Shown one piece after another: positions 35,749 to 39,537 of a DNA stretch of 46,547 nt. Numbering within the stretch: position 1 is the stretch's first letter; each line of letters opens with the position of its first letter. The stretch lies in the IMG/VR virus record IMGVR_UViG_3300032167_000209, positions 1 through 46,547 of that record; one strand, written 5' to 3'. A program made the position numbers and the translations under genes. Source of the stretch: a virus. The notes below the pieces were generated by a model that was not told the DNA's origin, did not search any database, and saw only the letters and a list, made by a program, of their open reading frames with translations.

Positions 35749-38700
35749 TTAACAGGCATTAATATTAATACCAATCGCAGTATCAAAGTCATAAGGAATT
35801 GGGAACCAATGTTCTCCATCAAAAGAAGTTAAGAACATATTCTTTGCGCGGTTGTCAATCATTAAGAAAGTTTCAGTGAAAACATAATAGAAAATCATTG
35901 GGTTTTTACAGAAATAATTTTCAAATTCTGCTTTAAACTTTGCTAAACGATATTCTGCAGTATCTTTAGTATATTCAACATCTGCATATGTGATAGGTTC
36001 AGGTAATTCATTATCGGTTGCTTGACGTCTATCTGTAGAAACAACCCAGTCAGTCATTCGCTTGAATCGAGTGTAATCACGATATGGGTCATCTAAATCG
36101 GGGAATCGAGCCTCAAAATCTGCGGTCCACGCAGGAACAGTATTACCATCTTTATCAGTGGTAGTTTCTTCATATTCACTTCTTTGGAATAATACACGAG
36201 AAGAAGTATTGTTACAGAATTCCCAGCATTCCAAGTTAGGATATTTAGTTCTATCAAAACCGAATACAATTTCATTACTCTTATCATCGTTCATATTATA
36301 CTGACCTTGGAATTTGATTTCACCAGTTTCAGTATTTTCCCAGAAGACAACGATAGGAGTGCCGCGCACGCCAGTTCTAACTCTTTCATCTTCCTCTTGG
36401 GCAGGAGTTAAGAAATAATCACGAACTATTTCATCATAATAGTCAACTAACATAACATTATTGGCTTGTTCAGATGAAGCAAAGTCGGCTTTTAAACAGA
36501 ATGTTTCTGCTAAAATGCCACCTTCAAAAATATCATAACCGTCTGCAGAAGTTCCATCGGGTAAGATAATACCTTCTTTAAAGGCTATTTTAAAGTTTTT
36601 AATAGGGTAGCCAGCAGAAGAAGTACCTTGAACGTCGAATTGACAACCCTTTGCAGAGAAACAACGCTCGGGGCGCAATTGGTCAACAAAGTACATACTC
36701 TTTGATTTCTTTTTATCGCCTTTGAATTGAGGTAATTCTTCACATTGCATAACTAGATAAGGAATTTCAGGAGGTAGAGAGCCAATTGTTAAGTTGCCTG
36801 AAATATCATAAATATCATTGCGCTCTTTTAATTCAAATCTTTCTGCATTGGTAGAGCGGTCACAGATATAGTTATTTAATTGTTCAATGTAAGTAAAGTT
36901 TCTTTCATAGAAACGAAGTTTATATAAGTCAATACCAGACTTTTCAGAACCTATTACAATAGGTTTGGGGTTTGCTTGTTTAAAATTGTCATTTGAGGTA
37001 TATTGCGTTAAACCGCACATAATACCATTAATGAACATATAGATAAATCTATTTAAAGTGGAAGGTTCAACTACAATTGTAATTCTAACTCTTTCATCTT
37101 CTTTAAACATCATATCTAATTCAGAAAGTTCAGTTTTAAAGACAACAGATTGAGATTTAATTTCAAAACCAATACCATTTTCATCCATACAAGAAACTAC
37201 AACTGCATCATAGTCTGCAACGTCACGAGTTTCTAATTCTAATTCAATGGTATAGCCAGTATTGCGCTTATCGGTAGCGAATGGATAGAATGGAATTGTT
37301 AATTTGTTCTTGGGCAAAAATCTTAAAACAGTCTCTCCCGCGTCGGATTCAACCCATCCATCTGCGCCAGACCAAGCAAAACGCTCGAATTCGCCAACGT
37401 AGTCACCATAAGACCAAGACTCGGGATTACGTTCACTATTGGAACGGCCGGCCGCACTAAATTCAAGAGTTAAACTATCTCTAGAAATTTCTAGATCGAA
37501 AACTGAAGGTTCAATATCAATGACAAACTATTTTACTGCATCAGTACCAGAATCAGAATGTGCTTGAATTTCAAAAGTTACTTTTCCAGCAGGATAATCT
37601 TGAGTAACCCAGTTCTGCACAGTCTAATCAACAGTAATTTCTTTAGTAAAATAAACGCTACCATCTTCATTATAAATAGTTAAAATAACATCAGCAGTTT
37701 CAAGGAATGGGTTATATACCATATAAGGTATGGTAATAATTTCACCTTGTGCTCCTGTCTTCTATTGGAAGTTTGATAAAATATGAGTATCAACCATTTC
37801 ATCAGTTACAAACATCATACCAATAACTAATGTATTACTTGTAATAGTCATATTATTAACTTCACGTTCAGCATAGATTTTTAATATATGAGCGCCCGCC
37901 TCTTGCATAGGAACTCTATAACTATGTGCTAATTGAGTTGTGCTTGTAACTTCCTCACTAGCAATCTCTTCATCGTCGATGATATAATGCATAAGTTTAG
38001 TGCCGGGACCGGTAATTGTAAATGGAATTGCAGTTTCACTGAAATAAGTATCCATATCTTTAACATTAGTAGTTAAATATAAGTTTACTACTTCAATAGA
38101 GAAAGCCAATGTTTTAGAATTTGATTCACTATTTTCAACTGTTAATTCAACATTATTTTCACCCAAACTTAAATATTTAGTAATATCTAAAGTTTGAACT
38201 TTTTGAGGAATTGCGACAGTAGCCTTTTTTACATTGTTAACTATTAAAGTACCAATACCAGGACCATCGGCAAATCCAGTAGCATCAACAGATGAATATC
38301 TAAAGCCTATAGTGATTGGATCGCCCTCGATAGCAGCGAAAATGCGGTCGATGGTATTTTGTAGAGTGATAGTGTAACCTTCAGTTGCTACACCACCGCC
38401 TTGACCCATTTGCTGATAAGCATTGGTTATTGTATTATAAGTATAGAATAATTGGTCTGCGGCGACCTTATATAATACATCTGCTTCACCTATTTCAGGT
38501 AAATCGGCATATTTCTCAACAACAATTATATTATTTTTGCCTTCGCCCGCACTTGTTGAACCGCTTACTTGAGCATATTCATTAGTTGAAGCATTCCAAG
38601 TATAAACTTTTTCATCTTCTAATACTTTATATAACATATCAGAAGAACCTGTGGCCGGCAAGTTTTCAATCGTATCAACGACTTCAATGCCACCTTTGAC

Positions 38701-39537
38701 TTCTGGAATAATATCTTCAGTAACTGTAATTAAAGGTTCAAAAGAATTTGTTAAATTATTCCAAAAATAGAAGGATTGAGTAGAAGATAATTTATATAAA
38801 ATATTTTCTTCTCCTACTTCTGGTAAAGTGTCTACGATTTTTATATTGTCAGTATTTGTGTCTTCAAACTCGGGTGTTGTAAATAGATAATCATAAACAC
38901 CAAGACTTGGATTATAGAAATAAAATTTCTATTCATCTTGTGCTTTATATAAATAGTTTTCTTGACCTTCAGCAGGAAAATCATTAAAAGTAGATGCTAC
39001 TACTATATTATCAGTATTAGTATCTTCAAACTCTGGTATAACTATCTCTTCATTATTTAAAGATGTAAATTCTTTCTTACTAGAATCCCATAAGTAAATC
39101 TTTTGGTTTTCTAATACTTTGTAGAGATAATTATCTACTCCTTCTTCTGGTAAATCAGAGAGACTATTTAATACAATAATGTTATCTGTATTAGTATCTT
39201 CGAAGGTGGGAGTTTCAGAGAAATCTAATAAGTTAAATTCGTTAGTTAAAGTATTCCAAAAATAAATCTTCTAACTATGTTCAACTTTATAGAGGGCTGA
39301 AGGACTACCAACTTCAGGCAGAGTATCAACTATTATCATACCACTATTGCCTACGATTTCTGCTTCGCCAGTTGTATATGGTAAATTTTGCCAAGTTGAA
39401 ACACCATTACCGATTTTTAATTTTAAAGTATCGATTTCTACACCAGGTTCGCCTGCTTGTAGAATGGGGTTCGCGGCAATCCAATTATGAGAAGCATCAG
39501 CACGTAATTTAATAATGGTATTTAAAGCCTTTCCCAT
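35749..39537 (-). CDS. giant tail fiber or tail structural protein (about 1262 aa) assembled from track ORFs 39271..39537, 37762..38661 and 35749..37317 plus intervening sequence
   Basis: all pieces share one frame; I translated 39270 to 38659 codon by codon and found only one TAG and no TAA or TGA; further TAGs at 39271, 37762, 37624 and 37528; AAGGAGG Shine-Dalgarno; N-terminal tail-fiber domain RAD..NW..NPIL..GE..KIGNG..W.NLPY; TAA stop at 35749. Confidence 0.6.
38662..39270 (-). repeat. four tandem repeats of about 135 bp inside the giant gene, encoding FEDTNTDNI..V.....D.P.EG....LYK....QK.Y.W
   Basis: direct nucleotide and peptide repetition visible in sequence. Confidence 0.6.

Follow-up and report, generated by a model that had tools for sequence, protein, structure and literature searches.

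A predicted group I intron and in-frame TAG codons jointly conceal a large tail-fibre-like gene in an uncultivated phage

Where does the giant tail-fibre-like gene of the viral record IMGVR_UViG_3300032167_000209 end, and does it encode one protein or several? An earlier note on this stretch of 46,547 nucleotides (nt), analysed here at its full length and called the window below, had joined three minus-strand open reading frames (ORFs) into one gene of about 1,262 amino acids (aa), in which TAG counted as a sense codon and a TAA at 35749 was the stop. Our analysis keeps the recoded frame, but places that TAA within a predicted group I intron beyond which the frame resumes. The gene would thus comprise exon 1 (35770..39537, aa 1-1256), an intron of 1,048 nt (34722..35769) carrying a homing-endonuclease ORF (34856..35611), and exon 2 (32127..34721, aa 1257-2120 plus TAA), all on the minus strand; the whole unit, taken as pre-mRNA, spans 32127..39537 and its spliced coding sequence 6,363 nt, that is 2,120 aa plus the TAA. 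We assign a probability of about 0.85 to this exon-intron-exon model with a single 2,120-aa product, which would be two-thirds longer than the protein first described.

The first part of the earlier claim holds. Both the ORF list and the translation place 39271..39537, 37762..38661 and 35749..37317 in a common frame on the minus strand, and the only in-frame stop in the gap 38662..39270 is indeed a single TAG (codon 203, 38929..38931). A second gap, 37318..37761, which the note had left unmentioned, has two in-frame TAGs inside it. With TAG alone read through, 35749..39537 yields 1,262 codons with five TAGs and the terminal TAA, TGA and any other TAA being absent; AAGGAGG lies upstream of the start ATG at 39537. 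Besides codon 203, these TAGs are codons 89 (39271..39273), 592 (37762..37764), 638 (37624..37626) and 670 (37528..37530), and exon 2 contains codons 1285 (34635..34637) and 1309 (34563..34565). Accordingly, the spliced 6.3-kb frame carries seven interruptions, all of them TAG, and no TAA, TGA or frameshift was found in it.

Several observations point to glutamine (Gln) as the amino acid inserted. Codons 89 and 203 share one column of the repeat array described below, where three sister units have Gln; codon 1285 is Gln in NatCom_3357, P0008, P0010 and P0012, and codon 1309 is Gln in P0001, the closest uninterrupted homologue. Codons 592, 638 and 670, located by frame scan, fall at variable alignment positions. 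In the window as a whole, many ORFs are longer once TAG is read through and TAA and TGA stay stops, TAG alone among the stops being found in frame in conserved genes; 33 in-frame TAGs over 34 minus-strand genes represent about 9% of Gln codons, and the G+C content is low (34%). The phage also encodes a trans-acting tRNA of the amber-suppressor type, with anticodon CUA (20243..20317, minus strand; ARAGORN; Rfam tRNA 43.5 bits), in which U1, G2-G5 and A6 of the acceptor stem and the discriminator G73 are those of the tRNA-Gln(UUG) of the window. The gene is thus most probably one ORF using TAG as a sense codon for Gln. Nine tRNA genes, all on the minus strand and all with an encoded CCA end, form two clusters in the window: 19794..21348 (Lys, Gly, Sup-CUA, Ser and Thr) and 45951..46537 (Leu, Gln, Val and Pro).

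The end of the gene at 35749, by contrast, was not borne out. The ORF ending there closes with PYDFDTAIGININAC and the stop, and the ORF downstream of the endonuclease opens with (M)INNEGKLVFDYDLED; joining 35770 to 34721 produces PYDFDTAIG|INNEGKLVF, in agreement with uninterrupted homologues. Exon 1 ends GAT ACT GCG ATT GGT and exon 2 starts ATT AAT AAT GAA GGA (INNEG), homologue alignment placing the junction after G1256. The spliced RNA is predicted to read GCGATTGGT|ATTAATAATGAAGG (also given as GATACTGCGATTGGT|ATTAATAATGAAGGAAAA) and the junction peptide DFDTAIGINNEGK. The 1,262 codons first reported would accordingly correspond to exon 1 plus seven intron-encoded codons. In tblastn, the joined sequence matched phage NatCom_3357 (Ca. 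Heliusvirales) in one continuous stretch at 47% identity, and it also matched Hankyphage-like Bacteroides phages. The uninterrupted genes encode 1,673 aa in NatCom_3357 (XTK82179) and 2,262 aa in Bacteroides phage BT-TP2 (gp44), and read PYDFDTAIGINNEG (also given as PYDFDTAIGINNEGALVF) at the junction.

Occupancy of the insertion codon is sporadic. Among the 120 best homologues in a collection of 5.8 billion proteins, 78 cross the junction uninterrupted, versus about 30 that are split there (20 terminating at DTAIG and about ten beginning with (M)INNEG). A recoded relative, L127, displays the empty site at the DNA level as GCCATTGGT|ATTAACAATGAAGG (ATTGGT|ATTAACAATGAAGG; also given as GCCATTGGTATTAACAATGAAGG). 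In another relative, L003, which is 60% identical across the spliced protein and likewise TAG-recoded, the order exon, GIY-YIG ORF, exon is kept. A search of IMG/VR with the junction protein returned no related loci.

The intervening sequence is, to judge from its paired elements and their covariation, a group I intron, IA-like and possessing both P7.1 and P7.2. Its 5′ part (35612..35769, minus strand) contains the P1 guide GCCUGU, the P10 partner AUUAAU, the P3 5′ strand AAACC, two hairpins of P3.1/P3.2 type, P4-P5, the P6 5′ strand and the Shine-Dalgarno site of the endonuclease, and its 3′ part (34722..34855, minus strand) contains P6′, P7 (GACUA), P7.1, P7.2, P3′ (GGUUU), P8, the S element AAGAUAUAGUC (P7′), P9 and the terminal G. 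At the 5′ splice site, the exon end AUUGGU (U at 35770) faces the guide in P1 through a U.G wobble, which is found in six of the seven members of the intron family, both neighbouring G-C pairs being invariant. At the other end, the terminal intron G (omega-G) stands at 34722, and exon ligation restores the frame, DTAIG|INNEG. The cut position has a 7-nt ambiguity, within which only 34722..35769 satisfies the requirement for a U ahead of the intron as well as that for a terminal G. The AUUAAU just 5′ of the guide is complementary to the first six bases of exon 2, AUUAAU, and would form P10.

When the two halves were separated, the Rfam model Intron_gpI (RF00028) matched the 3′ half with 29.8 bits (E 3.2e-6, model positions 114-253) and the 5′ half with 13.1 bits (E 0.3); an ORF-less intron of the same family (L084, 5733..5969, minus strand) gave a full-length match of 35.5 bits (E 2e-7). 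Covariation was then assessed in an alignment of seven ORF-deleted cores from related introns. The 52 pairs of 11 helices (including P1, P3, the first hairpin, P4, P6, P7, P7.1, P7.2, P8 and P9) are 96.4% paired, against 34-49% in slid controls with partners moved by 1-3 columns; 23 of these pairs are altered on both sides, and the observed values were reached in none of 500 shuffles. The covarying pairs cover the P3-P9 core, including the P3/P7 pseudoknot. P3, in which AAACC, next to the guide on its 3′ side, pairs with the GGUUU that separates P7.2 from P8, appears across the family as AAACC/GGUUU, AUACC/GGUAU, ACACC/GGUGU and AAAUC/GAUUU, and P6, which encloses the endonuclease ORF, as GGG/CCU covarying with GGC/GCU. 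A minimum-free-energy fold of the ORF-deleted intron did not yield the pseudoknotted core.

Two other views of the 5′ region were discarded. If AAACC paired locally, extending the first hairpin, the outer two pairs would be only 64% paired in the seven-intron alignment, and this pairing does not hold in the ACACC variants either, in which it is the distant partner that covaries. The hairpins between the P3 strand and J3/4 were also considered as a non-canonical topology, a view that was dropped as P3.1 is listed as a known optional helix of group I introns (PMC3873408).

With a signature from the P7.2 loop (15 nt, then 23 nt), about 100 related introns were recovered from IMG/VR phage contigs, where they interrupt other genes. 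As a search string, TGCTATTGATACGCANNTNGAAA occurs in 104 stretches of such contigs (loci L013-L178), many of the contigs being 100-200 kb long; the host genes of the signature-bearing introns differ, and their 5′ exons likewise end in TGGT. A further intron of the same family was searched for within the window and was not found.

The ORF in the P6 loop (34856..35611, minus strand, 251 aa) has the characteristics of a GIY-YIG homing endonuclease, with a Pfam PF01541 match of 26.8 bits (cut-off 22.6), the motif GIIY-x10-YIGQS and a match to phrog_314, ‘homing endonuclease’ (1.6e-25). It has a strong ribosome-binding site (AAAGGAGG) and three in-frame TAGs, at 35552, 35390 and 35180. Its orthologue in L003, 58% identical, has five TAGs, one in common with the ORF of the window, and the ORF is intact in both lineages. 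The sporadic distribution and the empty sites in close relatives are those of a homing element. Between the window and L003, the intron, the endonuclease ORF and the exons are each 68-73% identical in nucleotides; these parts having diverged equally, the intron would be an old resident of the gene. On its 94.5-kb contig, L003 contains a second GIY-YIG ORF (899..1648) between two pieces of a DUF2828 gene (414..3032), probably within another intron, and the DUF2828 gene of the window (1137..2693) appears intact.

What kind of protein would be restored by splicing? The domain order is Mtd_N, six beta modules forming a beads-on-a-string spacer, immunoglobulin (Ig)-like domains, a CotH-kinase-fold domain, leucine-rich repeats (LRRs), Listeria-Bacteroides-type repeats and DUF6273. 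At the N-terminus, the tail-fibre anchor announced in the earlier note was retrieved as an Mtd_N-type domain (aa 9-47, 39397..39513; Pfam PF18454, 8.7e-11), and 12 PHROG tail or tail-fibre families match aa 6-68. The C-terminus is a DUF6273 domain (aa 1993-2096, 32202..32513; PF19789, 1e-12), and the central region matches phrog_14959 and phrog_24896, both of function unknown. With its anchor domain and its location in a neighbourhood of fibre genes, the protein would be of the multi-domain tail-fibre or receptor-binding type, and its presence in the virion and its function are likewise presumed from this resemblance.

Among the neighbours, the 658-aa fibre-like product of 39628..41604 (minus strand) presents a threefold internal repeat, G.DGL.L.V.QVDGAITSISGSI...TYDAYGAA, and by eye an Mtd_N-like start, and is without PHROG match. 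The match of ORF 43547..44824 (minus strand) to Mtd_N is weak and stays below threshold (3e-4; 21.1 bits for a cut-off of 26.3), and 44796..45164 (minus strand) has by eye an Mtd_N-like opening motif.

The predicted junction lies inside the CotH-kinase-fold domain, whose N-terminal part would extend over about aa 920-1256 (35770..36780) and whose C-terminal part over about aa 1257-1400 (34290..34721), both limits being approximate and taken from homologues and from an AlphaFold2 model of P0001. Pfam CotH is detected in eight of 11 homologues (42-67% identity; best 1.9e-8), along with LRR_5, Flg_new and DUF6273. The model of P0001, an uninterrupted homologue 65% identical to the protein of the window, has a predicted local confidence (pLDDT) of 80 and a predicted template-modelling score (pTM) of 0.74; its best match in the PDB is Bacillus cereus CotH (5jd9/5jda; Foldseek E 1e-8, probability 1.0, target TM 0.66), LRR proteins ranking after the CotH structures. 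No match emerged when PDB sequences were searched with a profile. The intron is located four codons past the invariant PYD-F-D (DFD motif, 35782..35790) and 24 codons past the invariant D-N-R-A-K-N (35839..35856). To judge by their appearance, D.RAKN may be the catalytic loop of a kinase and PYD.DTA its DFG-like motif.

Other readings of the locus have to be weighed against this model. If the gene simply ended at TAA 35749, its product would be 1,262 aa long, and the GIY-YIG ORF and the following ORF of 865 aa would be independent genes. Indeed, 35749..39537 is without internal TAA or TGA and terminates in a TAA, and the following ORFs possess ATGs of their own. However, the last seven codons (ININAC and the stop) are unmatched in every homologue, the sequence of the downstream ORF is continuous in the 78 homologues mentioned above, the end would bisect one CotH-fold domain at its most conserved motif, and the intervening DNA has a group I fold backed by covariation; we regard this reading as very improbable. 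It is hardly credible that the gene is a decaying pseudogene of a standard-code genome in which the TAGs are true stops. Translation with table 11 does give many short ORFs, yet all seven interruptions across 6.3 kb are of the same type, with no TAA, TGA or frameshift, a suppressor tRNA gene is nearby, relatives at 60% identity retain the full frame with TAGs of their own elsewhere, and the sequence is identical in three metagenomes.

In T4-like phages, free-standing endonucleases have split genes, and the gene could likewise have been broken by endonuclease invasion without any splicing, its two parts (one of 1,262 aa, the other of 865 aa and starting at ATG 34724) being translated apart and reassembling afterwards. 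This reading, which we consider improbable, is favoured by an in-frame ATG at 34724..34722, made up of the three terminal intron bases and directly before exon 2, in the window and in several relatives, which would permit separate translation of exon 2, and by MINNEG starts called in at least six other lineages. However, this ATG is devoid of a Shine-Dalgarno site in the window, where most genes carry AAGGAGG, and the matching triplet in L003 is ACG, which together argue against a separate translation. Moreover, all group I core helices are kept with compensatory changes, whereas an unused intron would be expected to decay, and intron and exons have diverged equally, the endonuclease ORF being intact in both lineages.

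Beyond this ATG, several points count against the exon-intron-exon model or against parts of it. Rfam scans of the whole window at the gathering threshold, and of 34300..36100 at E ≤ 10, did not find the intron, and none of the Intron_gpI matches reached the RF00028 gathering score of 50 bits, a shortfall that we attribute to the 756-nt ORF and to the P7.1 and P7.2 insertions. The covariation alignment comprises seven sequences, from which the structure itself was partly derived. The protein of the window, split or spliced, has no Pfam CotH (PF08757) match at E ≤ 1, and the CotH fold match stems from P0001, which serves as its proxy. Lastly, we infer self-splicing of the intron, TAG recoding and read-through of the gene by the suppressor tRNA from sequence.

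Under the exon-intron-exon model, the locus would be a single late gene for a structural protein, in a large uncultivated phage that uses TAG as a sense codon. The 1,048-nt intron would self-splice, joining GAU ACU GCG AUU GGU to AUU AAU AAU GAA GGA and restoring PYDFDTAIG|INNEG, the most conserved motif of the protein; the tRNA(CUA) of 20243..20317 would then read the seven UAG codons. By analogy with known homing systems, the endonuclease would cut intron-less alleles in co-infecting relatives, into which the intron would be copied. A more speculative extension, which we hold to be doubtful, is that the tail fibre bears an intact CotH-type kinase that is doubly gated, by self-splicing beside the metal-binding DFD and by suppression of seven UAGs, and hence active only late, the number of modules (one to six) setting the reach of the enzyme and of the receptor-binding end.

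The predicted intron can be compared with that of the T4 td gene (subgroup IA2, endonuclease I-TevI). The td core resembles that of the window in sequence (UAACGGGGAA...CAAUCCCGUG, UAACGACUAUC and AAGAUAUAGUCUG). Both have P7.1 and P7.2, a GIY-YIG ORF of about 250 aa with its own Shine-Dalgarno site in the P6 loop, and an insertion at a motif coding for an active site. Unlike the td intron, however, the predicted intron of the window interrupts a tail-fibre-like structural gene instead of a gene of nucleotide metabolism; its P3 5′ strand directly follows P1, with two P3.1/P3.2-type hairpins preceding J3/4 and no P2, and its endonuclease ORF holds three TAG sense codons. It is textbook knowledge that conserved phage genes may harbour group I introns encoding GIY-YIG endonucleases, and homing endonucleases and introns are typically found at active-site-coding motifs (PMC3984707).

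It is also established that phages can recode TAG to Gln by means of their own suppressor tRNAs, above all in genes for structural and lysis proteins (Borges et al., bioRxiv 10.1101/2021.08.26.457843; phAss-1, PMC10607447). The window resembles code-15 gut phages (crAss-like, Lak, Garnet/Amethyst, phAss-1) in its TAGs in structural genes, its phage-encoded tRNA(CUA) and its low G+C content, and is unlike them in that TAG represents about 9% of Gln codons. In TGA-recoded Agate phages, the endonuclease of a group I intron was reported to be recoded as well (Borges et al., bioRxiv 10.1101/2021.08.26.457843); the intron of the window differs from that case by its location in a late recoded gene, not an early one.

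CotH-family kinase domains in phage proteins were described as ‘currently unstudied’ (Benler et al., PMC8008677). Hankyphage p00, BT-TP2 gp44 and NatCom_3357 XTK82179 are homologous to the protein of the window over about 1,300 aa (26-40% identity), with the same D.RAKN and PYD.DTA motifs and the same CotH-plus-LRR arrangement. Their genes are nevertheless uninterrupted and in the standard code, and the protein of the window differs from them in having a six-module N-terminal array and a DUF6273 end; gp44 adjoins a reverse transcriptase. As for the Bacillus CotH spore-coat kinase (5jd9/5jda), the intron-split domain shares its fold, through the P0001 model, but is only 11-12% identical to it and is embedded in a fibre-like protein of a predicted 2,120 aa. 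New here are the CotH-fold tail-fibre-like host gene, the combination of recoding and intron in one gene, and the unannotated repeat module. A group I intron placed with its endonuclease, as predicted, inside a gene for a late structural protein, where the presumed catalytic motif of a CotH-kinase fold is encoded, would matter in its own right, as would an endonuclease ORF that has taken up the altered code of its phage.

The repeat array of exon 1 differs from its first description as four tandem copies of 135 bp. Protein-level alignment reveals six diverged modules of about 53 aa (aa 62-385, 38383..39354, minus strand), 51-58 aa (153-174 nt) from start to start, in an array that overruns the 38662..39270 gap at both ends. 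Tandem Repeats Finder, run on 35000..40500, reported short AT-rich repeats only and no period near 135 nt, because the repeats are too diverged in DNA: the units are 27-51% identical as protein and 60-78% as DNA. Of the proposed consensus, the FEDTNTDNI prefix is present in three units and absent from the remaining ones, and the pattern I.VV...LP..G....LYK.....Y.WN....F..L describes the module, LP..G starting at aa 73, 129, 187, 238, 293 and 346. In an AlphaFold2 model of the TAG-free segment aa 204-591, four strands build a small beta module in each unit (pLDDT around 80); the units are set apart by linkers of low confidence, and Ig-like sandwiches follow the array. Foldseek returned only generic tandem matches of Ig and fibronectin type III domains for this repeat/Ig segment, and no Pfam family covering the module was found.

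Among 1.84 billion cluster representatives, an exhaustive profile search detected the module in 163; the highest number of copies, 16, is that of P0153 (2,869 aa). Copy number differs between related fibres, as the earlier note had suggested checking: relatives with a complete N-terminus have 6, 5, 5, 5, 4 and 1 copies, the single unit of the L003/P0013 lineage being the counterpart of the last unit of the window. Repeat number might, as that note proposed, tune the length of the fibre or its reach to receptors. Three independent metagenome contigs, 99.9-100% identical to the window, showed no copy-number polymorphism. The definition of this beta module of about 53 aa, variable in number between related fibres, is thus a further outcome of the analysis. 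The pattern G....LYK.....Y.W loosely recalls the CBM_5_12 carbohydrate-binding fold, and aa 1774-1791 of P0153 give a weak partial match to CBM_5_12 (9.7e-4), a tentative lead.

As the earlier note had anticipated, standard-code annotation splits the gene. On the near-identical contig L005 (JGI 3300029705), the JGI calls are 88, 291, 32, 30, 522 and 799 aa long, the 799-aa call being the exon 2 piece, and the endonuclease ORF is called as 45, 104 and 29 aa. Public annotation of the locus therefore amounts to at least nine fragments with no CotH domain, and neither gene half alone matches Pfam CotH. The same fragments are called on a contig of 185,543 bp, from which the phage genome must be at least that large. 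The lesson for annotation is that two known phage features, stop recoding and a mobile intron, would together conceal a gene of 2,120 codons; the intron signature could help to correct gene calls in other large phage contigs. When 24.5 kb were compared by megablast with a collection of 50,697 phage records, a 120-nt intron match in an Enterococcus phage was the sole result, and no nucleotide-level relative was found.

Several other genes of the window deserve mention. Three paralogous ORFs of 250-280 aa (284..1057, 2741..3493 and 5020..5862, minus strand) share a repeated Cys-rich motif, W.C.C.CG...SCGC; in a scan that covered 284..1057 and 2741..3493, both showed a DUF2726-like C-terminus, and the middle ORF has four TAGs. 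These paralogues may be free-standing nucleases scattered between genes. The ORF 14437..17244, of 935 aa with six TAGs and without Pfam match, lies on the plus strand, opposite to almost all others. Beside the suppressor-tRNA cluster, 18410..19708 (minus strand, 432 aa) encodes S-layer-homology domains (4.7e-21) and, by eye, a signal peptide, which hints at a host with an S-layer. Among the fibre-like genes, 21432..23288 (minus strand, 618 aa) has an ALK/LTK-type glycine-rich domain (Pfam 6.6e-45). Lastly, the TAG-free ORF 5916..8366 (minus strand, 816 aa) matches Pfam MVP_shoulder (1.1e-22) and Vault_3 (5.4e-10), and is thus a phage-encoded protein resembling the major vault protein.

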